This document shows positions 17,436-45,563 of a stretch of 64,000 nucleotides of DNA, in pieces. Location: the IMG/VR virus record IMGVR_UViG_3300035698_012504, positions 186,694 through 250,693 of that record. One strand, 5' to 3'. Under the pieces are notes generated by a model, which was not told the origin of the DNA, did not search any database, and worked only from the letters and a program-made list of their open reading frames with translations. This DNA comes from a virus. Both the position numbers and the translations under genes were made by a program. Each line of letters starts with the position of its first letter. Within the stretch, counting starts at the first letter, position 1.

Positions 17436-17915
17436 ATGAAGAGGATGAGGACTATGGGAAATACGGACAAATTCTCGGCATCAACCCGCGAAGCAGCAGA
17501 GGCATTGGGTATGACTTATGTTTGTCTTGCCGCCAGGACAGAGCTCCGGGAAAAGTATGCACGAAACGTAGGTACAGGAAAGAAGGGGCGATTTGCCTGG
17601 GACGTCAATGCAATGAAGAAGGATGGGATCAAATCCACTGGACGTGGAAGACCTTCTGCTCCGACATCTATCGGTGAGGGCGGGCTCCCTGGCAGTATAC
17701 TCAAGGCAATCCGCAAACTGTCCGAACCGACGCGCAAGCAGCTGGAGGAAGTGATGCAGGCACGGCAAGGAATTGCCAAATTGCAGGCACATTGGCCCAA
17801 AGACAAGGACGTCGTCGCTCTGGCTAATAAGAATCAGAAGCGCTTTGCGATGATCCTGGCCAAAGAAATGGAAGCGAGCGAAGTAGTTCAGGACATGCTC
17901 GCGTTGGCTTTCTAG
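17436..17915 (+). CDS. Hypothetical protein encoded on a GC-rich island
   Basis: 159-aa ORF. Its base composition is strikingly GC-rich relative to the flanks. A 15-bp perfect hairpin follows it. Confidence 0.4.
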   Translation: MKRMRTMGNTDKFSASTREAAEALGMTYVCLAARTELREKYARNVGTGKKGRFAWDVNAMKKDGIKSTGRGRPSAPTSIGEGGLPGSILKAIRKLSEPTRKQLEEVMQARQGIAKLQAHWPKDKDVVALANKNQKRFAMILAKEMEASEVVQDMLALAF

Positions 17916-19735: not shown

Positions 19736-20971
19736 ATGTTTAAGAAGATTATGTCGTTGGTATTAGTTTCGTTCATGGTAATCAGTTTAACTGCTGCAGC
19801 ACAATCATATGATTACTCACATAGAAAATCATCTGCTACCATCGAGGTAACAGATTTGAGTGGTAATGCTGCGCCCGGCGTGAGTGTAGAAGTCACACAG
19901 ACCGGTCACGAGTTCCTATTTGGTATGGGTCCAGGAGTATTCTATAAACCAGAACTCCTGGATAAAGTTGATGATGTCTTCAACAATGCTACACTCGGGT
20001 TGTATTGGTCTAGCTTAGAAAGCCCACAAGGTACCTATAAGTTTCCAACACTTCAGATCCAGGTAGATTGGTGCAAGACAAGAGGGTGGCCTATGAAAGG
20101 ACATCCAATTCTTTATACTATAGCACAACCAACATGGGGCGCTACGCCAGAAGCACAAATAGAACATATTAATAAACTATTAAATGAATATGCAGATGAC
20201 TTTATGTTCTGGGATACGGTGAACGAACCTATTAATAATCCTGGAATAGATATAGGATCTGTTCATTCTTATATAAGAACATTACCATACAATGACTTGA
20301 AGATAGGAATTAATGAATATGGAATCCTTGGTGGTTGGTTGAATCTTGCTACTATACTGAAAGGTGTTGGAAGCCAATTTGACTATGACTATGTAGGAAT
20401 TCAGTCTCATATTCCAGACGATAAAGAATATGATATTAATTATATAAAATCAAAGATAGAAGAATTTAATGATCTTGGAAAACCTATTCACATTAGTGAA
20501 GTATCTGTTCAGTCCGCTGGTGGAATTTGGAATGAAACCAATCAAGCAGACTATGCAGAGAAATTATATAGATTGTATTTCTCAATACCCTCAGTAGAAG
20601 TTATTACCTGGTGGAGCATTCCAGATGGAGATCCTTGGAAACCTACGATTGGATTATTCAGAACGAATGGTACATCGAAGCCAGCATTCGATAGATTGAA
20701 AAATCTTATTACAAATGAATGGTATACTAAATTAACAGTTGAATCTAATAGTGAAGGTAAAGTAATATTTAATGGGTTCCGTGGCAATTATAAAATATTG
20801 GTAGAAGACGTAGAGGTTCCGCTTACTTTAGATAAGAGTAATCCTACTGTTACAGTCGCGGTTGCTGTTGAAGTAGTTGAACCAGAACCCGATCCTGAAC
20901 CGGATCCGGAACCAGTTCCAGAACCAAAACCAAGGAAAAGATGGTGGAAATTCTGGAGATGGGGTAGATAG
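19736..20971 (+). CDS. Secreted glycoside hydrolase (clan GH-A, GH5/GH26-like) with Pro-Glu repeat linker and Trp/Arg-rich C-terminal tail
   Basis: N-terminal signal peptide MFKKIMSLVLVSFMVISLTAAAQS. VNEP catalytic acid/base motif and ISEVSV nucleophile motif. C-terminus EPEPDPEPDPEPVPEPKPRKRWWKFWRWGR. Confidence 0.6.
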   Translation: MFKKIMSLVLVSFMVISLTAAAQSYDYSHRKSSATIEVTDLSGNAAPGVSVEVTQTGHEFLFGMGPGVFYKPELLDKVDDVFNNATLGLYWSSLESPQGTYKFPTLQIQVDWCKTRGWPMKGHPILYTIAQPTWGATPEAQIEHINKLLNEYADDFMFWDTVNEPINNPGIDIGSVHSYIRTLPYNDLKIGINEYGILGGWLNLATILKGVGSQFDYDYVGIQSHIPDDKEYDINYIKSKIEEFNDLGKPIHISEVSVQSAGGIWNETNQADYAEKLYRLYFSIPSVEVITWWSIPDGDPWKPTIGLFRTNGTSKPAFDRLKNLITNEWYTKLTVESNSEGKVIFNGFRGNYKILVEDVEVPLTLDKSNPTVTVAVAVEVVEPEPDPEPDPEPVPEPKPRKRWWKFWRWGR

Positions 20972-22000: not shown

Positions 22001-22134
22001 GGAGGAGTAGCTCAGTTGGTAGAGCGCATGCCCGTAAAAATGCCCTATTCGATATTTTCCCCTTCAAGGGTTATGAGGAACAGGGTTACTTCGCAAAAAG
22101 CAAGAGGTCGCCAGTTCGAGTCTGGTCTCCTCCA
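22001..22134 (+). tRNA. tRNA gene with a ~60-nt insertion in the anticodon-loop region (candidate intron). Anticodon tentatively GTA (Tyr) if the insertion sits at the canonical 37/38 position.
   Basis: Perfect acceptor stem ggaggag/ctcctcc. Canonical D arm tagctcagttggtagagc and T arm gccagttcgagtctggt. Between them lie 75 nt instead of 17+5, namely catgc-ccgtaaa-[60 nt]-a-gcaag. Confidence 0.5.
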
Positions 22135-23271: not shown

Positions 23272-23362
23272 GCCGGGGTCGCATAGTTGGTCGATTGCAC
23301 CGGACTTGTAATCCGGATGGCTTTACGCCGCATCGTAGGTTCGAATCCTACCCTCGGCTCCA
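23272..23362 (+). tRNA. Type-II-shaped tRNA (18-nt variable arm, 3-bp D stem) with anticodon TGT (Thr-decoding) and discriminator U
   Basis: gccgggg/cctcggc acceptor, ccgga-cttgtaa-tccgg anticodon arm, variable arm atggctttacgccgcatc, T arm gtaggttcgaatcctac, CCA encoded. Confidence 0.55.
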
Positions 23363-23872: not shown

Positions 23873-24463
23873 ATGAGTTGGAAATCCAAAGAAGAAAGAC
23901 GCTGTATTGATTGTGATAAAAAGGGTGTTGTAGAAAGAAGACGGTGTAAGGAATGTGTTAAAGAATACAATCGAGCGCGTGCGAAGGAAAGACACGCTCG
24001 GTTGGGAAGACACAATTATGGTATATCCACATGTCCTATATGTGGAAAACCCATGACAATGTGGAGAAAGACCCAGGCAACGCATGCTACATGTATACCT
24101 AAAACGACTGGGGATTATAACTTAGTCGGGAGGTCTCCATCTGGCAGAACATTGGGTCGACAGAAGATGATTGACGCTGGCGTCGATGTCCCAACCGAAT
24201 TCGTTGTTCACCATCTGGACGAAAATCCAGATAATAACGATCTTGGGAATTTGATAGCAGTGAGGCGGTCGTCACACACAACCCTACACAGAAATCTACA
24301 GTATCATAGGTCGCTGTTCCTGAAAGAGAACAGTAAGTATTCCGAGGATTGCTGGAAACCCCTTAGAGATCATCTAACCAAAGCATGGATGGAAACGTCG
24401 AGTGCGAAGGTTCTAAAAATAGATGATATTGGGCAATCAGCAGCCGAGCCTCTAAACTCCTAA
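23873..24463 (+). CDS. HNH endonuclease
   Basis: Cys-rich N-terminus, then VVHHLDENPDNNDLGNLIAVRRSSHTTLH (HNH motif). The GGACAAA promoter-like motif lies 25 nt upstream. Confidence 0.7.
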   Translation: MSWKSKEERRCIDCDKKGVVERRRCKECVKEYNRARAKERHARLGRHNYGISTCPICGKPMTMWRKTQATHATCIPKTTGDYNLVGRSPSGRTLGRQKMIDAGVDVPTEFVVHHLDENPDNNDLGNLIAVRRSSHTTLHRNLQYHRSLFLKENSKYSEDCWKPLRDHLTKAWMETSSAKVLKIDDIGQSAAEPLNS

Positions 24464-24600: not shown

Positions 24601-24645
24601 CGTGATCGCAAGATCGTGTGGGTTCGATTCCCACCATCCCTACCA
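24601..24645 (+). tRNA. tRNA 3' fragment: hairpin + T arm + 3' acceptor strand + CCA. No matching 5' half adjacent.
   Basis: cgtgatc-gcaa-gatcgtg hairpin, gtgggttcgattcccac T arm, catccct-a-cca. A possible 5' partner gggggtg lies about 840 nt upstream at 23768. Confidence 0.4.
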
Positions 24646-25065
24646 TTTTATATTATACCCAGTTGCCCATTTTCTAACTGCGTTATCTGAGACTTTGTAC
24701 TTTCTACCCAACGCCGAAAAAGAACTATTTCGAATTTCAAGTTCTAATATTTCTTTTGTTGGGCGTGATACTTTTCTTGGGCGAAGTTTACCACTACATG
24801 ATTTACATCTAACTGCACCTGCAGATATATGTTTATGACAATCAATACACACATTGATTTGTAATTTAGGTCTTACTTTAGATGTCTTTTGTTTGATCAC
24901 ATTTTTCCGACCCCTATATGTAGGTGTCTGTGCATGACAGTTCGGGCATATAATTCTTAAATTTTCCAATCTATTATCATTATTAATGCCATTAATATGA
25001 TCTAATTCCAGAGAGATAGGTTTATTATTCCATTCGGTTAGTCCACACATCTCACATACATACAA
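24640..25065 (-). CDS. HNH endonuclease
   Basis: DHINGINNDNRLENLRIICPNCHAQT HNH motif plus a C-terminal CxxC zinc ribbon. Confidence 0.7.
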   Translation of the reverse strand: MYVCEMCGLTEWNNKPISLELDHINGINNDNRLENLRIICPNCHAQTPTYRGRKNVIKQKTSKVRPKLQINVCIDCHKHISAGAVRCKSCSGKLRPRKVSRPTKEILELEIRNSSFSALGRKYKVSDNAVRKWATGYNIKW

Positions 25066-25718: not shown

Positions 25719-25796
25719 TGAGGTGTAGCTCAATTGGATTAGAGCACCAGAATTTGGATCTGGATGTTGGAGGTTCGAGTCCTCCCACCTCATCCA
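25719..25796 (+). tRNA. tRNA-Gln (anticodon TTG)
   Basis: tgaggtg/cacctca acceptor (U1-A72), tagctcaattggattagagc, ccaga-atttgga-tctgg, ggaggttcgagtcctcc, CCA. Confidence 0.8.
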
Positions 25797-25826
25797 ACAC
25801 AACCCCCGAACCCAAGGAGAAGACAA

Positions 25827-26675
25827 GTGGCAATTAGAGGGAAAAACACTCAGCTCCTGGTCATCGATCCACAGGTGGACTTTTGTGATCCGACCGGAGC
25901 CCTATTTGTACCTGGCGCTGTGGAAGATTCAGTCCGCCTTGCGACAATGATCGACCGACTAGGAACCGGTATCAAAGATATCCACATTACACTGGATTCG
26001 CATACCCAACTTGACATTTCCCATATTATGTGGTGGAAGTATGTGGATGGCCAAGCAGTCAAGCCGTTCACCGTAGTCATTACGCGGCATGGTCGGATAT
26101 ACGGAATGGAGATCAACCTGACGGATGGTTCTCTTGGACCGGAACGCGAACTCATCACGGCGGCTCCCTTCGCGGCGCAGAGGACTCTCGACTATCTGGA
26201 AGCTCTCGAGAAGAGCGGGCGGTATGGTCACACAATCTGGCCGGATCACTGCATCATCGGATCAGTGGGTCACAGCATAACCCAATCCATCTTCGATGCC
26301 GTTCTTGGTTGGGAACAGAAGATCTTCGGTAGAGCCCAGCGAGTCGTGAAAGGCTCCAACATCTGGACCGAACACTTCGGTATCGTCAAGGCTGAGGTGC
26401 CCGATGACACCGACAGCTCGACACAAGTCAACACGAAGCTCATCGATATCTTGATTGCCGCAGACGAAGTGTTTCTTGCCGGGCAAGCGTCCACCCATTG
26501 CGTGGCAAATTCCGTGATGGACATCGCAGATGAATTCGGTGACGAGAACATTCACAAGCTCATCCTTCTCGAAGATGCGACTTCACCCGTTCCCGGATTC
26601 GATGCCCTGGAAGCTGACTTCAAAGCGAAAATGACTGCGCGGGGCATGCAGTCCGCCAAAACCACAGACGTATAA
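25827..26675 (+). CDS. pncA: Nicotinamidase / pyrazinamidase (isochorismatase-fold, PncA-like)
   Basis: GTG start after RBS AAGGAGA. The stretch LLVIDPQVDFCDPTGALFVPGA matches the PncA N-terminus (LLVDLQNDFC..GALAV). Conserved Cys context GQASTHCVANS. GC-rich gene. Confidence 0.7.
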   Translation: MAIRGKNTQLLVIDPQVDFCDPTGALFVPGAVEDSVRLATMIDRLGTGIKDIHITLDSHTQLDISHIMWWKYVDGQAVKPFTVVITRHGRIYGMEINLTDGSLGPERELITAAPFAAQRTLDYLEALEKSGRYGHTIWPDHCIIGSVGHSITQSIFDAVLGWEQKIFGRAQRVVKGSNIWTEHFGIVKAEVPDDTDSSTQVNTKLIDILIAADEVFLAGQASTHCVANSVMDIADEFGDENIHKLILLEDATSPVPGFDALEADFKAKMTARGMQSAKTTDV

Positions 26676-26689
26676 GGAGACAGATACAA

Positions 26690-27481
26690 ATGCCTTCATT
26701 CGAAGATATGGTAGACCAAAACATTACGGGAAGCGAATTCCATTTCTCCTCAGTAAATATTGACAAATTAGACGAGCTCAAGTACACGGTCGCAAACATC
26801 TCCGCCGACGTAAGCGGTAGTATGTGGGGGGAAGAAGCCAAAGTCGATGAGGCGTTGCAGCGGATTATCAAGACATGTCAAAATGCTGCGACAGCCGATA
26901 ACATCCTTCTGAGGCTCATTGCATTCAACAACTCCGTGCAGGAAATCTTCGGGTTCAAACCGATCCACACGATTACCCCTGCTGATGTCGCAGTGCCGTC
27001 GCCCGGTGGAGGTACGGCACTGAATGATGCCGTGTTCAGTTCGGTAGGTGCCGTGGAAGACGAATGCGTCCAACTCTTTGATCAGTCCTGTGATACCAAC
27101 GGCATCGAGGTTATTATCACGGACGGCTATGAGAACTCGAGCAAATCAAGCAACAAGAAGGTTCGCAATCGGATCAAATCGATGAAGAAAAACGAGGCGA
27201 TGGAGTCGAACATCAGTATCCTCGTTGCAATGGGTTGCGACACCAGCACCGACAAAGCATACTTCACCAAGTTGTGCACGGACCTTGGCATCGATCACTT
27301 CTTGCCGTTCCCGGACATGACCGAGGCGACGTTCGGCAAGTTGGTCCAGCTCATCTCGCAGTCGATCAGCTCACAGAGCAAGGCGCTTGGGAACGGTGGT
27401 CCTTCTCAGATCATCAACCCACTTACCGGCGCAGTGTCCCAGCCTGTTACGGGTGGGGCTTCAGTGAGTCTCTCGATATAA
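26690..27481 (+). CDS. von Willebrand factor A (vWA) domain protein, TerY-like
   Basis: MIDAS motif DVSGSM, then GGTAL and ITDG motifs. GC-rich like pncA. Confidence 0.7.
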   Translation: MPSFEDMVDQNITGSEFHFSSVNIDKLDELKYTVANISADVSGSMWGEEAKVDEALQRIIKTCQNAATADNILLRLIAFNNSVQEIFGFKPIHTITPADVAVPSPGGGTALNDAVFSSVGAVEDECVQLFDQSCDTNGIEVIITDGYENSSKSSNKKVRNRIKSMKKNEAMESNISILVAMGCDTSTDKAYFTKLCTDLGIDHFLPFPDMTEATFGKLVQLISQSISSQSKALGNGGPSQIINPLTGAVSQPVTGGASVSLSI

Positions 27482-27548
27482 TCCGCAGATCCTTGGGGGT
27501 GGGGGGTCGAAAGACCTTCTGCCTCCACCATCTTTTAGGAGGTACGCC

Positions 27549-28430
27549 GTGATAACTAGCGATGCGTTTTTGGCAATTGGTGCCACTCACGCAATGTGTG
27601 AAGATTACATCAGAACTGGAATCATTGGACAACACATAGGAGAAGATGTACCATTTGCCATAGTTTCAGATGGATGTTCAGGTTCTCCAAATACAGACAT
27701 AGGGTCAAGACTCTTAACAATTGCTGCAGAGAAAACAATTAAAACTATTCATTCACTTAATTCTGCTCTTTCATTTGGAACCGATTATCGTAGCTTAGGA
27801 TTTATAATCTCTAACGAAGCCAATCAGCTGAATGCTGGTAATACTGTAACTCCAAAACAATGTCTTGACGCAACATTAATAATGATGGCTGGTATGAAAA
27901 CTGTATATGTTTACGGAGACGGATATATTATTCTACAATTCACAAGTGGAAGAATTATAATTATTGAACTAAGTTGCTATAAAGGTGCACCTCCGTATCT
28001 TTCTTATCAAACTCAGCCCGAGAGATTGGACATGTATAATAGTAAAGTCCCGAAGGCAGCCATTAAAGTGAAAGCCTGGGAACTAAATGGGGGACCAGTA
28101 ATAGAATTTAATGGATGGGAATTTGGGTACCAGGGTGGTAAGTTTCAATTCAATGTATCCGAGCTTATCCATGTTGATATTGGTTCCTTCGAAGAAATAA
28201 CAACCACATTAATTTCATCTGATGGACTAGGTTCGTTTATTCATGTTCCAACTGGAGAGCAAGTACCAGTTGATGATATAGTTGCAAAACTATTTGATAG
28301 GATGCCTAATCATGGGAAGTTCATTCAGAGAAGAGCTAAGCGGGTTCTCAAGGAACTTGCAAAGGATCAAATAGTCCACAACGACGATGTCTCTATCGCC
28401 GGTATGACATGGAGGGAGGATCAGGTATGA
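27549..28430 (+). CDS. PP2C-like (PPM) Ser/Thr phosphatase (putative)
   Basis: GTG start after AGGAGG. GATHAMCEDY (motif 1-like), FAIVSDGCSGS (motif 2, DGHGG-like) and LISSDGLGSF (C-terminal DG motif). AT-rich gene. Confidence 0.5.
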   Translation: MITSDAFLAIGATHAMCEDYIRTGIIGQHIGEDVPFAIVSDGCSGSPNTDIGSRLLTIAAEKTIKTIHSLNSALSFGTDYRSLGFIISNEANQLNAGNTVTPKQCLDATLIMMAGMKTVYVYGDGYIILQFTSGRIIIIELSCYKGAPPYLSYQTQPERLDMYNSKVPKAAIKVKAWELNGGPVIEFNGWEFGYQGGKFQFNVSELIHVDIGSFEEITTTLISSDGLGSFIHVPTGEQVPVDDIVAKLFDRMPNHGKFIQRRAKRVLKELAKDQIVHNDDVSIAGMTWREDQV

Positions 28431-28560
28431 TGTTTAAAATCTTTCTATGCGTAATAGCATTTCTTGTAGTATCTTATTTCGTTACATATCCAGAAGAGAT
28501 TCCAAGAGACTTCAAAGATTTGTTTGAGAAGTTCAAAGGGAAAGATAAGGATGATAAATA

Positions 28561-30312
28561 ATGGCTGCGATATCTGTTATAAATGAGGCGACAGGTAAAA
28601 CAGTTAAGTTGAAAGATAAACAATTCTTGGCTTCTGGAGGAGAAGGAAAAGTATTTCTAGTCAATGGAGTAATATATAAAGTATGCCATGATATATCTAA
28701 TATGATACCTAAAGAAAAAATACAGGAACTATGGGCGCTGTCGTCTCATGGAAATATTGCTTGTCCAGAAGATATTCTTGTAACATCCAATAAGGCAAGA
28801 ACACCAATAGGATATACTTCCAAATTCATACCAAACTCTATCCCTATTGCTAAGCTTGTCTCGAATGGGTTCAGAACCAAACAAGGATTTGGTGCAGAAC
28901 AAACTGTAGAATTAGTAGAGAGTTTAGTTAAGATGGTTAAGTTTGTTCATTCTCATCCAGGAATTTTGATAGTAGATCTTAATGAATTTAATTTCCTAGT
29001 CAATGAATTGAAGTTAACAGACCCATTTGCAATTGATGTTAATTCATGGCAGACACAGAACTTTCCTGCTTCTGCTATAATGCTACATATAATAGATCAT
29101 AAGACCAGTAAGTTTTCAAAGTTAACAGATTGGTTTTCATTAGGAGTTGTATCTACTATGTTGTTCTTAGGAGATGGTCCATACGGAGGAAGACATCCGA
29201 ACTTCGCTGCAAGAGATATCAAAGCAAGACAAGCAGCAACCGCTTCCATATTTGGACCAGGCGTAACCCTTAATAAGAATATAAGATCATTCGATGTTAT
29301 TCCAGATCAGTATAGAAGCTGGCTGGAGTCAATGTTTCAAAAAGGAATGAGACTTCCTCCTCCTGATGTGTTGGGACTGATGAGTCTGGAGAGCATCGTA
29401 GTGAAATTACTTACTGGTAGTGACTTATTTGAAATAGTAAAATTGTCAGAATATACTTCTGATGTTATTGAATGGCGCTCCGTTAATAATACAGTGATAT
29501 GTATTACAAAGAACTCATTGATTGTAGGGAATGAAAGCAAAAAAATTAGACGGAATGATTTAGATGTAGTAGTAACTGATGAATCACGTACACCAATTGC
29601 TATCGCTATTAAGAAAGATTCAACTACCTCAGGATTACCATCAGGATACGGTCTACTTTCTCTGGTGAATTTCTTAACAAATGATCCTATAGGTGGAGCA
29701 TCCTTGGCTGCGAAAGGATTCTTTGTTGCTGGTAATAGAATATATGTTCTCTCAGTAGATAAAGTAATTGAATTAGGTATTCGTGAAATGGGAAGTAAGA
29801 TAGTTGCTGCTGTTAATAAAGAGTGGGCATTTCAAAGCTTGTCAAGTACAGTATATTCTGGATTAATATATTCTGACATATTCGGCAAACCATACCTTAC
29901 AATCCCATATGCTGTAGGAAAATGTCTGAAGCGACACTTCCCAGAACTTGACGGGATCAAAATTACAGACGCCAAATATGAATCAGGTGTCGCATTTGTA
30001 ATAGGTGCAGACCAGGATGGTAAATATAACAAATATATATTTGTGTTCGATGAGAAACACAGCACACACACTACAATAGAAGAAAAGGATATTACTCCAA
30101 GCGATATAAATTTCACTGTTCTTGATAATGGAACGGTTGCATATATAGATTCAAATGACGCACTGGTACTCTTCAAGAAAGATGCACCAGATAAACGAAA
30201 AGAAATAAGAGACCCAGCCGTACATGGCGGGATGACTCTAACGAAAAGAGGGACTCAGGCAATGGCATTTGTAGGCAAGACGGTCTATACCATTTCCATG
30301 AAGACCCCATAG
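28561..30312 (+). CDS. Protein kinase-like (Ser/Thr kinase fold) protein
   Basis: Gly-loop SGGEGKVF, VIYKV lysine, HSHPGILIVDLNEFNFLV catalytic-loop-like segment. It has a long C-terminal extension. Confidence 0.5.
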   Translation: MAAISVINEATGKTVKLKDKQFLASGGEGKVFLVNGVIYKVCHDISNMIPKEKIQELWALSSHGNIACPEDILVTSNKARTPIGYTSKFIPNSIPIAKLVSNGFRTKQGFGAEQTVELVESLVKMVKFVHSHPGILIVDLNEFNFLVNELKLTDPFAIDVNSWQTQNFPASAIMLHIIDHKTSKFSKLTDWFSLGVVSTMLFLGDGPYGGRHPNFAARDIKARQAATASIFGPGVTLNKNIRSFDVIPDQYRSWLESMFQKGMRLPPPDVLGLMSLESIVVKLLTGSDLFEIVKLSEYTSDVIEWRSVNNTVICITKNSLIVGNESKKIRRNDLDVVVTDESRTPIAIAIKKDSTTSGLPSGYGLLSLVNFLTNDPIGGASLAAKGFFVAGNRIYVLSVDKVIELGIREMGSKIVAAVNKEWAFQSLSSTVYSGLIYSDIFGKPYLTIPYAVGKCLKRHFPELDGIKITDAKYESGVAFVIGADQDGKYNKYIFVFDEKHSTHTTIEEKDITPSDINFTVLDNGTVAYIDSNDALVLFKKDAPDKRKEIRDPAVHGGMTLTKRGTQAMAFVGKTVYTISMKTP

Positions 30313-30322: not shown

Positions 30323-30805
30323 GTGAAGTTTCTAAGGTTCAGTCTAAGGATGCTTTGGGCAACAGCCATTGGACTGTGTAAAGGCACCATCGGCGGTGCA
30401 AAAATGTTCTGGAAATTTCTTATGAATACAAATTGGAAACAAAAAATAGGTGTAGTTATTGCTACAATACTCATTGGGTTTTGGGGATTCTATGGATTCA
30501 TGTCGGAAGAACTGGTTATCAATGTTAACAAAACTGAGAAAGTAATTGATGCAGTACATGGTACATCTGTTTACAGAGTATCAAGCTACAACCTCACTGA
30601 TGAGAAAGCGGAGGTATTTGTCAATAAAGATTCGCTTGCGTATTTTAAGTGGAACTCTGCAGATGTAGATAACATCCTATCTCCATATGGCCTCTTCAAA
30701 GTTCGTGTGTGGGGAGTACGATTCGTCTATATGTCTTGGTTCAGAAATGTCATTTCAGCAACACCATTTCCTGGAATAAAACCGTTAACGGCTCAGGCGA
30801 ACTGA
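30323..30805 (+). CDS. Membrane protein
   Basis: 160-aa ORF with N-terminal TM helices. Confidence 0.4.
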   Translation: MKFLRFSLRMLWATAIGLCKGTIGGAKMFWKFLMNTNWKQKIGVVIATILIGFWGFYGFMSEELVINVNKTEKVIDAVHGTSVYRVSSYNLTDEKAEVFVNKDSLAYFKWNSADVDNILSPYGLFKVRVWGVRFVYMSWFRNVISATPFPGIKPLTAQAN

Positions 30806-31119: not shown

Positions 31120-31692
31120 ATATATTAAATAGTGACTAACAGGTTTCATCTTTGTGGGGGTGACCTGGTTTCGACGTGGGTGAATGGAAGGATGAGTTGC
31201 GTACCGAGGACTCCGATGGCCTCGTAAAAAATCGGAAAACGCTTAATTGCGAAAAACGTAGTAGACTTCGCTAGCCGTGTGGCTTCCAAGATCGCAGATG
31301 TTGTGGCTCCGGCCCCCGCGTTCGCACTTGCTGCCTAATCGGATGAACTAGCTGTCTCGTTCTAGACGCCCTCTATGGGATGAGACAACGACAGAGGGAC
31401 TGGACTCGGTAAGATGTAATCACTTGTAACCGAGAAGAGTACTTACTAGTGGTATAGGCGAAAGGAACCGTGCCTGACGGGTTCTGAGCTGAAACTAAAT
31501 GAAAGGCTATGTACGTAGACGCTTGTGCGGATACACTGACGGACGCGGGTTCGATCAATCTGGTCGACTTGGGAAGTAATTCCCTCGATTAAAGAGTGCT
31601 CATACGGTGAAAGCTAAGTCGTGCAATACGATAAGCCAATACCGTGGGGTTGAGGAAGAAATTCCAAAAGCCCTGTAGAGACTTATAGACAC

Positions 31693-32136
31693 CTAACTCT
31701 CACTGAGACATGGTGTACTAGGATGGAAAAATTCTTCCTGAAATTGTTCCTTTGCTATAGTGGCGGCGTTGTTGTACTTCCCATTCCGTGGGGTTACTTC
31801 AATATACCGATCTATCAGAAGATCGGTACGTCGGATCTTATCCGGTTCTCGGAGATAAGGTCGAAGTTGTTCTAGGAATTGTATGGCCTTCCTACCTTGT
31901 ATTGCCCAAACAAACGACGGTTTGTGGTGATCTTTGTAGGTTTTCTTATGGGATATGCACCCACCATAATTGGCTTTCATGAACTCTAGTAGTTCATACG
32001 TTGTGCTTGCAATAGAAACAATGGGTCTTCTCCATAGATCTGATCGTTTCTGTTTGGTCACCGTTACACTTCCTTCGCCATCAAACAACCCAGCAGCATA
32101 GGAATCATTCAGTTGTGAATCTTTCATAATACGCAC
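31693..32136 (-). CDS. LAGLIDADG homing endonuclease (single-motif, I-CreI-like)
   Basis: YAAGLFDGEGSV motif. 147 aa, typical of homodimeric LAGLIDADG enzymes. A promoter-like TTTGTCC motif lies 20 nt upstream inside the intron. Confidence 0.8.
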   Translation of the reverse strand: MRIMKDSQLNDSYAAGLFDGEGSVTVTKQKRSDLWRRPIVSIASTTYELLEFMKANYGGCISHKKTYKDHHKPSFVWAIQGRKAIQFLEQLRPYLREPDKIRRTDLLIDRYIEVTPRNGKYNNAATIAKEQFQEEFFHPSTPCLSES

Positions 32137-33220: not shown

Positions 33221-34018
33221 ATGCCAAGCAATGAAAATAGAAATCAGCTGCATGCGCTTCTTGCAGCCGATAACGATAAATCCAAACTACTTATCGGATT
33301 TCTCAGAGAAGCACAAAAGACGTTCCAGGAGCGGCGAGGCCACTTCGACGGACTCACCACCTCGGTCGAGTTCTACGATGATGAGCGAGCGCTCCAAGAG
33401 AACAAAACCGAAGTGAAGCGGATGGAAGAGACCGTCTACGGAAAGCTTCGGTATGTGTTCGCACATGCTGCACAGGCATTCAATCTCGGTACATCCAAAG
33501 AACGCACCAACACCATAGCCACAGCTGACTTGATCGTCAATGGGGTCACGGTGGCGAAAGACGTGCCAGCGGCGGAGCTTCTGTATCTAGAGAAGAGGAT
33601 GAGTACCATTCGCGAACTGCTTCATCAAGTTCCAACACTTGCTCCGGGTAAGGTTTGGACTGAGTTGACAACTGTAGCGGAAGAAGGGGTATACTCTTCC
33701 CCAGAGGAGCTGACCACAAGAACGGAAAAGGAAACAGTCTCACTCGAACTTTCACCGGCTACGGAAAAGCATGCCGCACAAGTCCAACCCCAGGTGAAGG
33801 ACGTTCGTGTAGCGAAGATACTGAAGTCCCACCAGTCGAGTGCGGTTACGCCCCTCACCAAATCAGGGATTCTGGCGCGTTGTGATGACATCATCTCGGC
33901 AACCCGTGCCGCACGAATGGCTGCGAACACTGCAACAGTGAATCAGCAGACATACTCCGAGAAACTTCTTGCGTACATTCTGGATGGAGACGAAGCTCTG
34001 TCAGAATCCTCCGAATAG
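33221..34018 (+). CDS. Hypothetical protein on a GC-rich island
   Basis: 265-aa ORF preceded by AAAGAAAGGG. Confidence 0.45.
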   Translation: MPSNENRNQLHALLAADNDKSKLLIGFLREAQKTFQERRGHFDGLTTSVEFYDDERALQENKTEVKRMEETVYGKLRYVFAHAAQAFNLGTSKERTNTIATADLIVNGVTVAKDVPAAELLYLEKRMSTIRELLHQVPTLAPGKVWTELTTVAEEGVYSSPEELTTRTEKETVSLELSPATEKHAAQVQPQVKDVRVAKILKSHQSSAVTPLTKSGILARCDDIISATRAARMAANTATVNQQTYSEKLLAYILDGDEALSESSE

Positions 34019-37405: not shown

Positions 37406-37951
37406 ATGGATGTCGGAGTGTTCCTAGGAAGAATGTGCCCTATTCATTTAGGACACCAACATGTTATAGAAAAAATGAGATTAGACTATGGCCGAGATTA
37501 TCTTATAATACTAGGAAGTTCAAATGAAATTATTACTCATAGAAACATATTTTCTTACAGGCAGAGGACATCGTACATTAGAATGGTGTATGGGGAAACT
37601 GCCCGTCTAATAGGATTGGGGGATCATGGTGGAAGAAACTTTCTTGATGACTTGGCTGAGTGGCTTGCCGAACTAAAAGATACAATTAAATTAGCTTTTT
37701 ATGGGCAAGATGTTCATCCAATATTTTATAGTGGAAGTGAATTTGATATTAGTTTCTTTGTTAATAATGATATGAGATTTAAGATAGTAAATAGAACTGG
37801 GCCTGGCTCTTATGATGTAGCCGGAGAAGATATAAGAAAACATCTGTTGCGTGAGGAACATGATCAATTAGGAGGACTCCTTGATCCGAGAATTATTCCT
37901 CATGTATTAACTGATTTCGAACAAAACCTAAAAATCCTTTTGTCTATGTAA
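37406..37951 (+). CDS. nadM: Nicotinamide/nicotinate mononucleotide adenylyltransferase (NadM/NadR-type nucleotidyltransferase)
   Basis: The N-terminal GRMCPIHLGH matches the GxFxPxHxGH signature. A later GEDIRKHL segment is SxTxIR-like. 181 aa, the size of archaeal/bacterial NMNATs. Confidence 0.6.
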   Translation: MDVGVFLGRMCPIHLGHQHVIEKMRLDYGRDYLIILGSSNEIITHRNIFSYRQRTSYIRMVYGETARLIGLGDHGGRNFLDDLAEWLAELKDTIKLAFYGQDVHPIFYSGSEFDISFFVNNDMRFKIVNRTGPGSYDVAGEDIRKHLLREEHDQLGGLLDPRIIPHVLTDFEQNLKILLSM

Positions 37952-37984: not shown

Positions 37985-39454
37985 ATGCCTACGGCTAGTC
38001 AAATGAATTCCGTGATGGCCAAAAACGAGCAACTAGAAAGTGTGCTCGAAGAAGCCAAAGAAACAATAATAGCTCTTGAGGCGAGGCTTGTGGAGATAAC
38101 GACTCCTCCTCTTTCAGTGAGTACAGTTCAGAGTGTCGATTTGGAGAGTGGGGTCTGTTCATTAGCAACAGGTGAATCAATAATAGACGTATTGATTCCA
38201 GCCCATATGAAAGACACTATCGTAATTGGTGACGTAGTACAAGTAGAATCCATGTCGAAGCAAATCATCGGCCCTTCCGGCTGCGCGACAATCGGAGAAA
38301 TTGCATTAATTAAAAGAGTGATTGATAACAACACAGTAGAAGTTGATGTTGGTGGTACAGTGAAAGTAGTAACATATAATAAATTATTCAAACATGAAAA
38401 AGGCGACAGAGTTCAATTAGATCTGACAAGAAATATCATAGTGCGAAACCTTGGAAAAGACGATGAGCAGTTCAAGTTCTCAGGCGAGACGGCAGTCACC
38501 TGGGATGATATCGGTGGGCTCGAAGATGCGAAACTCTCTATGAGAGAAGCTCTCGAGTTGCCATATCAATACAGGGAAATTTTCGCACACTACTCCAAGT
38601 CGCCTGCAAAAGGAATCCTATTATGGGGTCCTCCTGGTTGCGGCAAAACACTTCTTGCAAAAGCAGCTGTATCATCCATTGCTGCCACGCATGGAGCGGA
38701 GACAACGAATACGGCATTGATATATGTTAAGGGTCCTGAGATCCTCAGTAAGTGGGTAGGTGAATCAGAAGCAGTCATTCGCGGACTCTTCCAACGCGCC
38801 AGAGAGCACCACAAAGAACACGGATATCCTGCCGTTCTGTTCATAGATGAGGCCGAGTCCATTATGAATAGAAGAGGATCAGGTATCAGTTCGGACATGG
38901 ATAGAACAATCGTTCCCATGTTCTTGTCTGAGATGGACGGTCTCGATGAATCCCATGCAATAGTAATAATGGCAACTAATAGACCCGACATGCTCGACCC
39001 AGCCGTCACAAGAGATGGTCGTGTCGATAGAAAGATTGAGATTCCAAGACCAAGATTAACCGAAGCAAGCAGTATCTTCGGAATCCATCTTCGGAACAAA
39101 CCACTTGCCAAGAAAACTAAAAGTGAAACATTGGTAGAACTGGCATGCGAAATGCTTTTCGATGACGAATTGAAGTTGAAGAAAATTGTGATGAAAGATG
39201 GCGGATCAAGATTCCTTCGCATGAAGCATGTCTTGAATGGAGCTATGATCGCCACCCTTGTCGAGAAGGCAACTGGTATCGCGATCAGACGCGACATCGA
39301 ATCAGGGAAACCTTCGGGGATCACTGAGGGGGATATTAAAGAAGCCATTGAAGATGCGATTGTTGAAAATAAAGGATTGGGTCTTAAGACCGAAGTTAAA
39401 GAATTAATGGGTGGAAAAGTGAGTGGTGTGGCCAGCGTAGAGAGAGTGATATAA
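37985..39454 (+). CDS. AAA+ ATPase of the classic clade with N-terminal coiled coil and OB-like domain (proteasomal-ATPase/ARC/PAN-like architecture)
   Basis: Walker A GPPGCGKTLLAK, Walker B LFIDEAES, second region of homology ATNRPDMLDPAVTRDGRVDRKIEI. The N-terminus has a coiled coil (EQLESVLEEAKETIIALEARL) followed by a beta-rich segment. Confidence 0.8.
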   Translation: MPTASQMNSVMAKNEQLESVLEEAKETIIALEARLVEITTPPLSVSTVQSVDLESGVCSLATGESIIDVLIPAHMKDTIVIGDVVQVESMSKQIIGPSGCATIGEIALIKRVIDNNTVEVDVGGTVKVVTYNKLFKHEKGDRVQLDLTRNIIVRNLGKDDEQFKFSGETAVTWDDIGGLEDAKLSMREALELPYQYREIFAHYSKSPAKGILLWGPPGCGKTLLAKAAVSSIAATHGAETTNTALIYVKGPEILSKWVGESEAVIRGLFQRAREHHKEHGYPAVLFIDEAESIMNRRGSGISSDMDRTIVPMFLSEMDGLDESHAIVIMATNRPDMLDPAVTRDGRVDRKIEIPRPRLTEASSIFGIHLRNKPLAKKTKSETLVELACEMLFDDELKLKKIVMKDGGSRFLRMKHVLNGAMIATLVEKATGIAIRRDIESGKPSGITEGDIKEAIEDAIVENKGLGLKTEVKELMGGKVSGVASVERVI

Positions 39455-40196: not shown

Positions 40197-40238
40197 GAGA
40201 GGCCCTAAACAGATATTGATTGGGCCTCTCATTTTTTG
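40197..40238 (+). terminator. Rho-independent terminator
   Basis: gagaggccc-(16 nt)-gggcctctc followed by attttttg. Confidence 0.7.
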
Positions 40239-40250
40239 AAAGGAAAGGAT

Positions 40251-41789
40251 ATGAAAGCACCACCTGGTATGGAGGATGGTATGTCTTCCAAGGTTGTTGA
40301 CGCGACGAGTGGAGAAAGTTCCAATCCATGGGTTGATAGACGCGGACTGGCATTACTTACAGACTTCTACGAATTAACAATGGGTGCAGGGTTTTTTAAG
40401 ACTGGCAAAGCAGAAGATGAATCATGCTTTGAATATTTCTTCAGAGGTCTTCCTGAGCACAATGGAGTTGGTGTCTTCTGTGGAATCCAATCTGTTCTCA
40501 AGTATCTCACGCACTTCAGATTCACTGAGGATGACATATATACTTTAGAACGTACTAAAATGTTTACAGGCGAATATCTAAATTACTTGAAAAATATGGA
40601 GCTGAAACTCACGGTCAGGGCTGCTAAAGAGGGAACACTTGTTTTCCCTGGCGAGCCCCTAGTCCAAGTTTCAGGTCCATTAATTCAGTGTCAATTAATT
40701 GAGAGTGCCCTCCTTAATTTTCTTAATTTTCAAACTTTAATAGCGACAAAAGCTGCCAGAATGGTAAGAGCAGCTAACCATGAAATGGTACTTGACATGG
40801 GATTGAGAAGAGCACAAGGCCCCGATGGTGCTCTATCTTCATCGCGCGCACAATACATTGGTGGTTGTTCATCAACATCAAATACTCTTGCACATAAATA
40901 CTTCGGAATTCCAGTCAAAGGAACAATGGCTCACTCATGGGTAATGATCTTCGATACTGAGATTGAATCGTTCCGAGCATATGCTGATACCTTTCCAGAA
41001 AGTTGTGCGCTGTTAGTAGATACATACGACACTATTAGATCAGGTGTACCAAATGCAATAACAGTATTTAAAGAACTGGCAAAACACAATCCGATGATTA
41101 GACCAGCAATACGATTAGACTCCGGTGACCTTGCAAAGCTAAGTAAACAAGCACACCAGATGTTTGTAGATGCAGGGTTCAAAGATCCTCTCATTGTCGC
41201 ATCGAATGACCTTGACGAACATTTGATTGCAGATCTTAAGAGACAAGGTGCCAAAATTAATGCTTGGGGAGTTGGAACAAAACTCACTACAGCATATGAT
41301 CAACCAGCTCTTGGCGGAGTCTACAAATTGGTAGCAGTGAAGGAGGGAGAAACTTGGGCTCCTAAAATAAAAGTTTCATCAAATATAGACAAAATAACAA
41401 ACCCTGGGCGTCACGATGTCGTTCGATTTTTGGATGAAACTGATTCACCAATTGGGGATGTGATATACGAACAAGGGGAAGCGAAGAATGTCGCCGGAGT
41501 TGGAACTGTTGTTGTAACTGACGCAACCAATCTCTGGAAGGAAGTAAAAATAAGAGGAGCCCATAAAAGGGTGAATCTATTAGATGATGTTTTTGTAAAT
41601 GGATCGACTGTCAACGTAGATACTAGAACTATTGCACAAATAAGAACCGATGTAATACTTCATCTAGATAGATTGGATGATGAATTCAAGAGACTTCTAA
41701 ATCCTGAATATTATAAGGTAGCTCTTTCAACTGGATTAGGTGAAACAAAGAAACGGCTCTTGCAAGAGGCACAAGATATGGAGGGATAA
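40251..41789 (+). CDS. pncB: Nicotinate phosphoribosyltransferase (NAPRT/PncB family)
   Basis: LALLTDFYELTMGAGFFKTGK...ESCFEYFFRGLP resembles the NAPRT N-terminus (ALLTDLYQ.TMA.GYW...FELFFR). GTMAHS motif present. RBS AAAGGAAAGGAT before the ATG at 40251. Confidence 0.8.
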   Translation: MKAPPGMEDGMSSKVVDATSGESSNPWVDRRGLALLTDFYELTMGAGFFKTGKAEDESCFEYFFRGLPEHNGVGVFCGIQSVLKYLTHFRFTEDDIYTLERTKMFTGEYLNYLKNMELKLTVRAAKEGTLVFPGEPLVQVSGPLIQCQLIESALLNFLNFQTLIATKAARMVRAANHEMVLDMGLRRAQGPDGALSSSRAQYIGGCSSTSNTLAHKYFGIPVKGTMAHSWVMIFDTEIESFRAYADTFPESCALLVDTYDTIRSGVPNAITVFKELAKHNPMIRPAIRLDSGDLAKLSKQAHQMFVDAGFKDPLIVASNDLDEHLIADLKRQGAKINAWGVGTKLTTAYDQPALGGVYKLVAVKEGETWAPKIKVSSNIDKITNPGRHDVVRFLDETDSPIGDVIYEQGEAKNVAGVGTVVVTDATNLWKEVKIRGAHKRVNLLDDVFVNGSTVNVDTRTIAQIRTDVILHLDRLDDEFKRLLNPEYYKVALSTGLGETKKRLLQEAQDMEG

Positions 41790-41790
41790 T

Positions 41791-43722
41791 ATGCAATTAT
41801 GTAAAATTGGCACAACATGTATCTCAACATTAGTGGGTGATTTCGAAGGGAATGTGAATAGAATAATTAGTGCAATTAAACTTGCCGAGAGACAAGGTGT
41901 ACAGATTCTAGTAACTCCAGAGTTGGGAGTAACCGGATATAGTCTGGGGGACCGAGTTCTTTGGGATGATATTGAATTGAAGTGCGAAGAAGCTATGCGA
42001 AAAATAAAAGAGCATTGTTCTAAAGTTACTGTGTTTGTTGGTCTTCCGATATTCGCAGATGGAAAAATATATAATGGAATGGTTTGTATTTGTGGTAGAA
42101 AGTATTGTGGGGGATTTCTAAAAGCCCACCTACCAAGTTATAATATATTTTATGAAACAAGAAATTGGTCTCCGTATGATGGAGAAGATAGCATACATCA
42201 TGATTTATATGGATACTTAGGTCATAATATTATAGAAATTGGTGGGGTTAAAATATTTGGGGAAATATGTGAAGATGTTTGGGCGAATTCCCAGACTGTT
42301 TCTCAAGCAGTTAGTGGAGAAAATGGAGCCGTACTCGTTGTCAATGGTAGTGCTTCTCCATTCTCACCACAAAAGAATGTATCTAGAATGAAATTGATTC
42401 AGACAACTGCACAAAAAAATATATGCGTATATGCATATGCAAATCAATTAGGATTAGACGAAGGCAGGACTGTATTCGATGGTGGTGGAATCATCGCATC
42501 TCCGGATGGTATATTGTCTGCTGGGAAAATACTTAGTGATGCTGCGTTTACTATTAACACTGCCGTAGTAGATTTTGATAAGATAAGAAGACAAAGAAGA
42601 GAAAACAATACATGGAAATCTATAAAATCGAAACATATGTCGCGGATCCATAGCGAATATACCAAACCTATTTTAACAAATTATCAACTGATAAAAGAAA
42701 TGCTAGAATGCGATAGATACAAAGAAGCACATTACTCTTCTGCAATAGATGAACGCCAAATATTTAAGGCATTATCTCTTGCGTTAAGAGATTATTTTAT
42801 TAAGGCTGGTTGTTTTAATCATATCCTAATTGGTCTATCTGGAGGTAGAGATAGCGCATTATGTCTATTGGCTGCCCATACTGCAGTTCATAGCATGGGT
42901 AAACTCCCATCCGAAATAATAAAGACAGTGTATTTAGATCATAGTAGAAATAGTAGTGACAGAACAAAACAAGCAGCAATTGCTTTAGCTGGGGCACTAT
43001 GTATTCCGATTGAAGTAGTTAATATTGACGAAGCATCTGATATATCAAACACATTCGCGCATGATATGTTAAAGAAAAGTTCTAATCTTGATAATCCTCC
43101 GTTGGATCGAATCACTATGCAAAATACACAGGCAAGAGTTCGTGGGGCATTCATGCTCAACTGGGCAAATGCAATAGGTGGATTAGTAATAGTAACTGCG
43201 AATATGAGTGAAACTGCTGTGGGATATTGTACGACCGGTGGAGACAATCAAGGCGGGTATTCACTCCTAACAAATGTTCCGAAGACTATGGTTAATTCCA
43301 TTCTAGTTGACAGAACCATTGTATACAAACCAATGGGGAATCCTATTTCAAAAGCCATTCGAGAAATATTGAATATGAAACCAAGTGCAGAACTGGAACC
43401 AGATCAAACAGATGAAGATGATCTAATGCCATATCAAGTATTGGATAATTTACTAGTATTATATATAAAAGAAAGAAGACCAATAATAGAATGTTTAGAA
43501 ATTCTGAAGGTGATGTACGAAGTTGATTTTTATATATTTGGAAAGCTGACTAAATATTGTAAACGATTTATTCAGATGTTAGTTAAAAATCAATGGAAGA
43601 GAGACCAGCATCCAGTGGGTCCAAGAGTAATGGACTTCGATCTCGATCCAAAAACTGGATTCAGATTCCCAGTACTCCAAGTACTAGAGGAAGATCTTGA
43701 GTCACTAGAAGGGAAGTTATGA
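41791..43722 (+). CDS. nadE: Glutamine-dependent NAD+ synthetase (N-terminal nitrilase/CN-hydrolase domain + C-terminal NAD synthetase PP-loop domain)
   Basis: CN-hydrolase triad context VTPELGVTGY ... ICEDVW. PP-loop LIGLSGGRDSALC. ATG at 41791 after GGAGGGA. Confidence 0.8.
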   Translation: MQLCKIGTTCISTLVGDFEGNVNRIISAIKLAERQGVQILVTPELGVTGYSLGDRVLWDDIELKCEEAMRKIKEHCSKVTVFVGLPIFADGKIYNGMVCICGRKYCGGFLKAHLPSYNIFYETRNWSPYDGEDSIHHDLYGYLGHNIIEIGGVKIFGEICEDVWANSQTVSQAVSGENGAVLVVNGSASPFSPQKNVSRMKLIQTTAQKNICVYAYANQLGLDEGRTVFDGGGIIASPDGILSAGKILSDAAFTINTAVVDFDKIRRQRRENNTWKSIKSKHMSRIHSEYTKPILTNYQLIKEMLECDRYKEAHYSSAIDERQIFKALSLALRDYFIKAGCFNHILIGLSGGRDSALCLLAAHTAVHSMGKLPSEIIKTVYLDHSRNSSDRTKQAAIALAGALCIPIEVVNIDEASDISNTFAHDMLKKSSNLDNPPLDRITMQNTQARVRGAFMLNWANAIGGLVIVTANMSETAVGYCTTGGDNQGGYSLLTNVPKTMVNSILVDRTIVYKPMGNPISKAIREILNMKPSAELEPDQTDEDDLMPYQVLDNLLVLYIKERRPIIECLEILKVMYEVDFYIFGKLTKYCKRFIQMLVKNQWKRDQHPVGPRVMDFDLDPKTGFRFPVLQVLEEDLESLEGKL

Positions 43723-44609: not shown

Positions 44610-45563
44610 ATGCATAGAAATCCCGATCCTGATTCATTAGGTGCAGCCATATGTATGAAGTTTATATTATCAAATAAATTTGGGATTCATCCAACTATAT
44701 TTTTAGAAGGTGAGGTTAGTCATTTACAAAATCAAACGATGGTTAATATATTATCAATTCCTCTCATCAAGGTAGAAGAATATAAAAAAGATGAATTCGA
44801 TTTTGTAATAATTTTAGATACTACAACAAAGAATTCATTTCCAGATGAGTCAATTTTAACAATAGATCACCATAGGTCTGGAGATAGTAACGCGGCCAAT
44901 TCTCAAATAGAAGAAATAGGATCGACTTGTACTTTCATGTGGGAACATATGAAAGCTCTCAATTTAATAGAATTGGATGAAGATCAATCAATAAGAACTG
45001 CCCTAGTTTGTGGTATAGTTACAGATACTAATTTTCTAATCGAGCCTACTGTAACCAATAGAGATCAGGCAGCATATCAAGAACTAGTTCAAAATGTAGA
45101 TAAGAAAAAGTTAGATACTTTTCTCAATTATCCACTCCCTACTTATTACTTTGATCTTGAACGAAAAGTATTTGAGCCAGATAATTTTATAGAAGATGAT
45201 ACGTTTTTTATTGGTGGGACGGGGATTATTAGTGATGCCAGGCGGGATGTGATTCCTATGATTGCGGATAGGCTTCTTCGGAAACAAGGAATCGACACGG
45301 TATTCATATTTGGAATAATAGGAACCAGTCTTGTCTTTAGTGTTAGAAGTAAAAATTCATCGTTAGATGTTAATACATTCTGCCAGAAGGCCACCAACAC
45401 AAAGGCGAGTGGTGGAGGAAAACAAGGAATGGGTGGAGGTAGGATTTCATTGGCGGGTATTTATGAAACAACTTATCCAGATGAGCTGAAGGCTCACTTC
45501 TGGACATACGTCAAAGGAAGTATGTTTCATAGAGTTTCTAGCCTCCTATCAGGCGAACTATAA
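44610..45563 (+). CDS. DHH/DHHA1-family phosphoesterase (NrnA-like nanoRNase / pAp phosphatase fold)
   Basis: MHRNPDPDSLGAA (motif I), ILDTTTKN, TIDHHRSGD (DHH motif), C-terminal GGGK...G motif of DHHA1. The true N-terminus may lie upstream: the frame is open back to the TAG at 44526. Confidence 0.65.
   Translation: MHRNPDPDSLGAAICMKFILSNKFGIHPTIFLEGEVSHLQNQTMVNILSIPLIKVEEYKKDEFDFVIILDTTTKNSFPDESILTIDHHRSGDSNAANSQIEEIGSTCTFMWEHMKALNLIELDEDQSIRTALVCGIVTDTNFLIEPTVTNRDQAAYQELVQNVDKKKLDTFLNYPLPTYYFDLERKVFEPDNFIEDDTFFIGGTGIISDARRDVIPMIADRLLRKQGIDTVFIFGIIGTSLVFSVRSKNSSLDVNTFCQKATNTKASGGGKQGMGGGRISLAGIYETTYPDELKAHFWTYVKGSMFHRVSSLLSGEL

Follow-up and report, generated by a model that had tools for sequence, protein, structure and literature searches.

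A stretch of 64,000 nucleotides (the window) from IMG/VR virus record IMGVR_UViG_3300035698_012504, corresponding to positions 186,694 to 250,693 of that record, was analysed, and all coordinates below refer to positions in this stretch. The locus under study, 25827–30312, consists of four open reading frames (ORFs), all on the + strand, which encode in this order a PncA-like nicotinamidase, a vWA-domain protein, a PP2C phosphatase and, last, a Ser/Thr kinase that bears a β-propeller (Table 1). The source of the DNA is a novel contractile-tailed phage with a contig of 152 kb or more, the sheath protein of which is only 25% identical to the sheaths of jumbo phages such as phiR1-37. At the DNA level, a megablast search of positions 25000–31000 against 50,697 phage records returned no match, and the only protein-level matches to the region among phage records were found in two unannotated huge phages.

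Table 1. Genes and sequence elements of the locus and of the surrounding window.
Feature	Position	Strand	Basis
Nicotinamidase, PncA-like cysteine hydrolase, 282 aa	25827..26675	+	Family alignment, profile matches to solved structures
vWA-domain protein, 263 aa	26690..27481	+	MIDAS alignment, Pfam VWA in relatives, phrog_7371
PP2C/PPM Ser/Thr phosphatase, 293 aa	27549..28430	+	PF13672 homologues, alignment, AlphaFold2 model, Foldseek
Eukaryotic-type Ser/Thr kinase (residues 1–275) with seven-bladed β-propeller (290–583), 583 aa	28561..30312	+	Alignment, model
GC-rich hairpin, 15-pair stem, weak T tract	27494..27527	+	Terminator-like scan, direct sequence reading
Small hydrophobic ORF between PP2C and kinase genes, 44–50 aa	28409..28561	+	ORF list (gene callers give 44 aa)
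tRNA-Gln (UUG)	25719..25796	+	ARAGORN; Rfam tRNA, 65 bits
Cytidylyltransferase-like protein, candidate NaMN/NMN adenylyltransferase (NadD/NadM type)	37406..37951	+	Pfam CTP_transf_like, tblastn
Nicotinate phosphoribosyltransferase PncB	40236..41789	+	Pfam NAPRTase_N, NAPRTase, NAPRTase_C
Glutamine-dependent NAD+ synthetase NadE	41740..43722	+	Pfam NAD_synthase and CN_hydrolase
AAA ATPase	37985..39454
DHH/DHHA1 phosphoesterase	44610..45563
'Secreted protein' gene	30323..30805		phrog_301
ORF with GC3 of 0.57	17436..17915		No Pfam match
ORF with GC3 of 0.54	33221..34018		DUF7873, E = 1e-52
HNH-like ORF	23873..24463	+	By eye
HNH-like ORF	24640..25065	-	By eye
LAGLIDADG-like ORF	31693..32136	-	By eye
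Long tRNA, 134 nt	22001..22134		Rfam only
Long tRNA-Thr, 91 nt	23272..23362
tmRNA, full length	31164..31557	+	Rfam RF00023, 102 bits
GH10 glycosyl hydrolase	19736..20971
CapR-domain protein	48652..49914
Giant ORF, 2751 aa	51729..59984

The reading frame of pncA opens at 25764, and the GTG codon at 25827 is preceded by AAGGAG; the JGI gene call likewise yields 282 residues. In an alignment of 34 family members, the catalytic Asp-Lys-Cys triad (D14, K175 and C225) is invariant. The metal site is preserved as well, with D57, H59 and H141 invariant and H66 present in at least 90% of the sequences, residues which we take to be the counterparts of D49, H51, H57 and H71 in PncA of M. tuberculosis. 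Moreover, the same alignment displays a conserved WPxHC motif (W138-P139-x-H141-C142), which together with the metal site sets nicotinamidases apart from other isochorismatase-like enzymes. On its own, the single sequence stays below the cut-offs in Pfam and NCBIfam. The best match of the family profile is yeast Pnc1 (2h0r, E = 3.8e-14), followed by matches to PncA of M. tuberculosis (3pl1) and the P. horikoshii enzyme (1ilw), and nearly all of its 8 hits in the PDB are nicotinamidases. Homologues number 492, and some sources label them nicotinamidase/pyrazinamidase. Triad, metal site and profile similarity indicate that the first gene encodes a nicotinamidase, for which deamidation of nicotinamide is predicted.

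Only 14 bp downstream of the pncA stop codon, the vWA gene begins. Its metal ion-dependent adhesion site (MIDAS) is complete and invariant across 35 diverse family sequences (D40-x-S-x-S44, T109 and D145), 10 of which match the Pfam family VWA (PF00092) and 8 VWA_2 (PF13519). The protein itself matches phrog_7371 (E = 1e-14), and in a sequence search of the PDB the family profile matched no solved structure. At the C-terminus, a Ser-rich tail follows the pattern S.S.S..S..LG.G..S, which is kept in at least 90% of the 35 sequences, with S223, S225, S227 and S230 invariant and S239 nearly so.

The phosphatase gene starts with a GTG codon located downstream of an AGGAGG sequence. All metal-binding Asp residues are invariant in the alignment (D19, D41-G42, D124-G125, D225-G226 and D279-D280), and of the 205 homologues, nearly all among the matches listed carry PF13672. 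The family profile matches Stp1 of S. aureus. An AlphaFold2 model with a pLDDT score of 86.9 was compared with the PDB by Foldseek, and the best 50 matches are all PP2C phosphatases. A search of PHROGs gave no match for either the phosphatase or the kinase.

Within the N-terminal half of the kinase protein, the Gly loop GGEG (G26-G27), the β3 Lys K40, the αC Glu E56 and the catalytic-loop residues D139 and N144 are conserved, as are D159 of the DFG-type motif, D190-W191 of the 'DxW' motif in αF and R223 of subdomain XI. The AlphaFold2 model (pLDDT 89.2, predicted template modelling score 0.86) folds into a kinase domain and a C-terminal half with 28 strands. Foldseek matches in the PDB comprise WD40-type propellers, and the kinase half resembles RIP2K and IRAK4; the full-length match in BFVD is a Myoviridae 'serine/threonine protein kinase' (E = 6e-28). 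Pfam Pkinase scores 27.5 bits on the single sequence, which is under the cut-off of 31.7, and many homologues carry PF00069. At E ≤ 1e-30 the family comprises 1,386 representatives of clusters at 50% identity.

None of the four proteins has lost its catalytic or metal-binding residues, and as far as sequence can tell all of them look active. The initial annotation, made from the letters of the window, had proposed pncA, vWA, phosphatase and kinase genes in this order, and all four ORFs are present as it had placed them. Its nicotinamidase call is borne out by the family profile and by the intact triad and metal site. The motifs it had pointed to in the vWA protein (DVSGSM, GGTAL and ITDG) are present with invariant MIDAS residues, and those in the phosphatase (SDGCSGS and SSDGLGS) are accompanied by PF13672 relatives, invariant Asp residues and a PP2C fold. 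For the kinase, invariant catalytic motifs combine with structural matches to RIP2K and IRAK4. A PPM phosphatase at the third position and a kinase fold at the fourth, on which its triad reading hinged, are both supported, since conserved motifs and Foldseek matches agree in either case.

In order to place the locus in a wider context, 162 kinase-encoding loci (82 viral and 80 genomic) were examined, in which the partners were sought by jackhmmer. pncA was found in 128, vWA in 133 and PP2C in 136 of them, and 62 viral and 37 genomic loci have all four genes on one strand in the order pncA-vWA-PP2C-kinase. In the 98 loci (64 viral and 34 bacterial) with 6 kb or more of sequence on both sides, the kinase is accompanied by all three partners in 61/64 viral and 26/34 bacterial loci. 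Relatives carry the cassette in viral as well as bacterial settings and mostly in the same order. That annotation had described a triad with pncA as its neighbour; the order of the trio stands, but pncA is a core member of a quartet and not a mere neighbour. Huge phages and bacterial chromosomes alike carry this four-gene unit, in which PncA has a fixed place.

The tightest pair of the cassette is pncA-vWA, separated by no more than 150 bp in 77% of 128 loci. Where relatives have the cassette opened, broken or invaded, this most often concerns the junction between vWA and PP2C. In the huge phage LR745208 (L002), a 592-aa ORF with repeated modules and, by eye, an HNH-like motif is inserted between vWA and PP2C (2036–3814), at the junction that forms the composition break in the present phage. 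Two further ORFs of the window were considered as parts of the cassette and dropped, as no homologue of either was detected in the 162 loci by jackhmmer: the gene downstream of the kinase that matches phrog_301, and the small ORF between phosphatase and kinase, whose membership is doubtful because it is not conserved in other loci.

Bacterial copies are situated on chromosomes of many phyla. In complete chromosomes of Capsulimonadaceae, the cassette is flanked by mutS, rpoC, ppk and the gene for nicotinate phosphoribosyltransferase (NAPRTase), and a prophage origin was rejected on account of these housekeeping-gene flanks. In cultured Variovorax the two halves of the cassette are 20 kb apart, each beside NAD genes: PncA-vWA with NAD kinase and Nudix genes, and PP2C-kinase with pncB. 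These strains could serve as an experimental system for the cassette. In Variovorax sp. WDL1 and SRS16 (L168 and L169), both halves reside on a linear 'plasmid 2' of about 800 kb, an unusual replicon, whose region also encodes Nudix, macro-domain, NAD kinase, nucleoside 2-deoxyribosyltransferase-domain, AlkB and RNase HII proteins, a peptidyl-tRNA hydrolase and a tRNA-ligase-family gene. Directly 3' of the kinase gene, a protein of about 750 residues with an N-terminal SAM-methyltransferase domain is encoded in 18 bacterial and 0 viral loci (L127, 11684–13942, and 17 other loci of Acidobacteriota/Armatimonadota), and may represent a lineage-specific extra component.

The Preiss-Handler pathway leads from nicotinamide to nicotinate (PncA), nicotinate mononucleotide (NaMN; PncB), nicotinate adenine dinucleotide (NaAD; NadD) and finally nicotinamide adenine dinucleotide (NAD+; NadE). 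Clustering of the genes that neighbour the cassette, with identities confirmed by Pfam, revealed Nudix proteins at 56 loci, NAPRTase (PncB) likewise at 56, NadE at 25, NADAR at 19, NadD-type proteins at 18 and ADP-ribosylglycohydrolase (ARH) at 14. In several genomes the two gene sets are interleaved, with orders such as pncA-vWA-pncB-nadE-PP2C-nadD-kinase (L029) and pncB-nadE-pncA-vWA-PP2C-kinase-nudix (L156). The quartet belongs to operons of Preiss-Handler NAD+ salvage and ADP-ribose metabolism, a linkage in which, as in the identities of the four proteins, our confidence is high. The cassette had been likened by the initial annotation to a triad of bacterial stress and defence loci; it adjoins NAD+ salvage and ADP-ribose genes, not Ter or defence islands.

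The window encodes the Preiss-Handler set PncA, PncB, NadD and NadE together, with a marginal assignment of the NadD-type protein (23.5 bits for CTP_transf_like versus a cut-off of 21, and a tblastn match from a protein of one of the loci). PncB and NadE score above the Pfam cut-offs. PncB of the window shares 42% identity with its counterpart next to the cassette in L132, and NadE shares 30% with the NadE that lies within the cassette of L021. The gene for the AAA ATPase lies between the NadD-like gene and pncB, and that for the DHH/DHHA1 phosphoesterase just 3' of nadE.

The base composition of the locus is mosaic. GC content amounts to about 0.52 over 25800–27600 and to about 0.36 on either side, and GC content at third codon positions (GC3) is 0.60 in pncA and 0.65 in vWA, 0.28 in PP2C and 0.27 in the kinase gene, with values of 0.16–0.30 in most other genes of the window. 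The shift concerns synonymous sites and spans the interval from the tRNA-Gln to the hairpin. On its 5' side the GC-rich block is bounded by the tRNA-Gln, which overlaps the part of the pncA frame upstream of the GTG codon. The hairpin falls within the 68-bp spacer that follows vWA, precisely where the composition changes, and is possibly an attenuator, a terminator or an RNA-stabilising element. Sliding GC content and GC3 are in full agreement with the initial annotation as to GC-rich pncA and vWA genes next to AT-rich phosphatase and kinase genes. Of the composite acquisition it had deduced, the GC3 step is real; the origin is only suggested, given a milder bias across the family and the lack of a close donor.

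Selection or expression-linked codon bias acting on pncA and vWA could produce the same mosaic, and has to be regarded as a serious contender, if one that falls somewhat short of being probable. GC3 of both pncA and vWA exceeds that of both PP2C and the kinase gene in 73/110 cassettes, where 1/6 is expected by chance, and does so in every bin of genome GC content; this family-wide bias argues against simple import. Furthermore, a search of 5.8 billion proteins disclosed no close donor for the GC-rich half, the best match being 54% identical. However, none of the 110 related cassettes has a GC3 step as large as that of the window, 0.35, the highest value among them being 0.25. The step in the window coincides with the vWA|PP2C junction, so often broken in relatives, and pncA and vWA are not the sole GC3-rich genes in this AT-rich phage, as the ORFs at 17436 and 33221 show. 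When the two halves are compared by their similarity profiles, the window gives a Spearman coefficient of 0.12, the lowest of 112 loci, versus a median of 0.72 for the others. This value is also below those of comparably isolated loci, which range from 0.26 to 0.49; since these other long-branch loci likewise score low, chimerism is held to be suggestive only. HNH-like ORFs are situated just upstream of the cassette, and by eye an HNH-like ORF occupies the vWA|PP2C junction of the relative L002. Taken as a whole, pncA-vWA and PP2C-kinase behave as separable units, and it is plausible but unproven that recombination with a GC-richer relative has replaced the pncA-vWA half. This half, like both additional GC3-rich ORFs, has a foreign-looking codon composition.

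We lean towards reading the locus as a phospho-regulated module of Preiss-Handler NAD+ salvage, with modest confidence in the switch mechanism itself. The kinase and the phosphatase would constitute a reversible switch, the most likely target of which is the Ser-rich C-terminal tail of the vWA protein, a candidate phospho-acceptor. Through its MIDAS, the vWA protein, whose gene almost invariably comes immediately after pncA, might serve the nicotinamidase, and possibly downstream enzymes, as a gating or scaffolding adaptor, and the β-propeller could be an input or docking domain. Depletion of NAD+ is one of the major ways in which bacteria counter phages, and the phage pathways that restore it are emerging one by one. 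In the phage, the module could keep or rebuild NAD+ from nicotinamide in the course of infection, for instance when host NADase defences fire, and the phage copy probably offsets NAD+ depletion.

Several points weigh against such a salvage module. The PncA-like enzyme is 60–80 residues longer than canonical nicotinamidases and may therefore act on another amide substrate. In the window, the NadD-like, PncB and NadE genes do not adjoin the cassette but are found 7–14 kb downstream. Gene neighbourhood indicates a functional linkage without giving its direction, and the trio could instead use NAD-related signals. Finally, TerY-P, which has the same three-domain logic, is an anti-phage defence system as cited in PMC11090510, which leaves some probability to a defence or exclusion role of the cassette.

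Tentatively, the salvage module may be extended to a sensor-coupled NAD+ reconstitution system that in huge phages would represent a regulated fourth route around NAD+-depleting immunity. The propeller would detect a consequence of NAD+ cleavage, for instance a metabolite of the ADP-ribose type or an activated host NADase. Phosphorylation of the Ser-rich vWA tail by the kinase would then turn on nicotinamidase-driven Preiss-Handler salvage, and PP2C would reset the system. If true, NAD+ salvage in bacteria would have its first known control by phospho-signalling.

Alternatively, the trio could form a stand-alone conflict system of the TerY-P type, which serves defence in bacteria and superinfection exclusion in phages, with PncA as a rider or as an effector or accessory. 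As described in PMC11090510, the TerY-P triad (Anantharaman, Iyer and Aravind, 2012) is a hypothesised metal-sensing phosphorylation switch, which in its Ter/CoCoNuT-associated form comprises a vWA protein, a PP2C and a kinase with a zinc ribbon; the form tested in defence is a kinase-OB fold fusion (Gao et al., 2020), and from the same work TerY-P-like modules are known as stand-alone antiphage systems. The cassette shares with TerY-P its three-domain logic and gene order, Ter-type components of jumbo phages have been proposed to exclude competitors (PMC7824862), and homologues of the kinase show weak PADLOC matches to the kinase-containing defence families PD-T4-6, mad6 and MkoA. Against this stand the following observations, which render a conflict system improbable. 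PADLOC assigned the window proteins to no defence family, and no family named TerY-P was matched by them (E ≤ 0.1) or by 10 homologues (E ≤ 1), although PADLOC's own naming may differ. A tblastn search of 72,556 plasmids with the vWA protein retrieved four Variovorax 'hypothetical proteins' only, and no ter-operon protein. The kinase carries a propeller in place of an OB fold or zinc ribbon, bacterial copies are located among housekeeping and NAD genes, and the neighbours include no conserved nuclease, pore or NADase effector. Moreover, a nicotinamidase does not destroy NAD+.

About equally improbable is a function of the vWA protein as a metal-delivery or metal-sensing chaperone for PncA, with kinase and phosphatase reporting the metal status. 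The MIDAS is invariant, the four metal ligands of PncA vary little or not at all, and pncA-vWA is not only the tightest pair but is also set apart from the kinase pair in Variovorax. The metal-sensing role hypothesised for TerY-P in PMC11090510 points in the same direction, as do the vWA cochaperones discussed in PMC7824862 and PMC9503650. However, neighbour clustering shows that a partner ATPase of the MoxR type is not conserved in the cassette, and both the Ser-rich tail and the propeller would be left without explanation. To our knowledge, canonical PncA enzymes need no dedicated chaperone. Some phage kinases re-programme host proteins, and a seemingly competent kinase and phosphatase in a plastic, tRNA-rich region, where homing-endonuclease-like ORFs and unrelated genes accumulate, could be host-takeover enzymes to which the adjacency of pncA means nothing, but this is very unlikely, because more than 60 viral contigs, as well as bacterial chromosomes from many phyla, keep the four genes together, and chance adjacency cannot yield 61/64 and 26/34.

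The tRNA-rich region that surrounds the cassette extends from 18054 to 37383 and contains 10 tRNAs according to ARAGORN and 11 according to Rfam. Two of its tRNAs are unusually long and may contain introns (Table 1). The region also includes the HNH-like and LAGLIDADG-like ORFs resembling homing endonucleases, and a tmRNA, absent from the ARAGORN output, which accounts for one GC-rich island. Elsewhere in the window, a GH10 glycosyl hydrolase, a CapR-domain protein and a giant ORF are encoded.

Comparison with known systems places the trio closest to TerY-P, with which it has in common co-directional genes for a vWA/MIDAS protein, a PP2C and a Ser/Thr kinase with an extra C-terminal domain. 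In contrast to the zinc ribbon or OB fold of TerY-P, this domain is a seven-bladed β-propeller in the cassette. In addition, a nicotinamidase obligately accompanies the trio, which lies within NAD+ salvage operons, and no Ter, McrBC/CoCoNuT or restriction genes are found beside the cassette in the loci examined. The TerY-P assignment of the initial annotation thus holds for domain combination and order but not for family membership, which is denied because of the kinase propeller and the failure to match a TerY-P family in PADLOC or a ter-operon protein on plasmids. Judged by its domain architecture, the trio works like TerY-P but is not TerY-P.

NAD+ synthesis by phages is an established counter-measure or adaptation (PMC11662467, PMC7824862, PMC9503650). 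Clusters of the Preiss-Handler type, pncB-nadD-nadE, have been described in jumbo phages (PMC11662467), and the NadV/NadM/NadR systems of phages have been reviewed (PMC7824862, PMC9503650). Like the jumbo-phage clusters, the window groups NAD+ genes, namely pncA, nadD-like, pncB and nadE. However, the published accounts feature no vWA, PP2C or kinase, and neither do those of the NARP pathways below, whereas here the trio is the constant companion of pncA and its genes are often interspersed with those for NAD+ biosynthesis. A further likeness exists to NARP1 (Adps and Namat), NARP2 (Nampt and Nmnat) and NARP3 (PnuC and a NadR-like protein), which are phage routes that rebuild NAD+ from breakdown products and escape NAD+-depleting immunity. 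Such an escape is the likely selective setting of the module in a phage. The present locus differs in its use of nicotinamide deamidation and the nicotinate branch, in its enzymes and in the added kinase-phosphatase-vWA layer: the window encodes PncA, PncB, NadE and a cytidylyltransferase-like protein instead of the enzymes that define NARP1–3.

Phosphorylation near the C-terminus is known for the vWA protein ArnB. Sulfolobus ArnA/ArnB and Deinococcus DRA0331–0334 (vWA, Ser/Thr protein kinase, FHA and PP2C) resemble the cassette in that a vWA protein is combined with Ser/Thr kinases and a phosphatase in a phospho-dependent regulatory module (PMC7472852, bioRxiv 10.64898/2026.01.23.701218), whereas these modules employ FHA readers and have motility or DNA-damage signalling as output, and the cassette has a propeller, no FHA domain and an output linked to NAD+ salvage. 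A coupling of nicotinamidase with vWA, PP2C and kinase is undescribed in the searchable literature, a scope outside which the primary TerY-P paper of 2012 falls. Within that scope, the comparison suggests a previously undescribed, putative TerY-P-like phospho-switch joined to nicotinamidase-initiated NAD+ salvage. The cassette is common, as the size of its kinase family shows, and occurs in huge phages as well as many bacterial phyla. If the trio does regulate salvage, NAD+ recycling in prokaryotes and viruses would be subject to signal-dependent post-translational control, and a concrete cellular process could be assigned to a TerY-P-like module.

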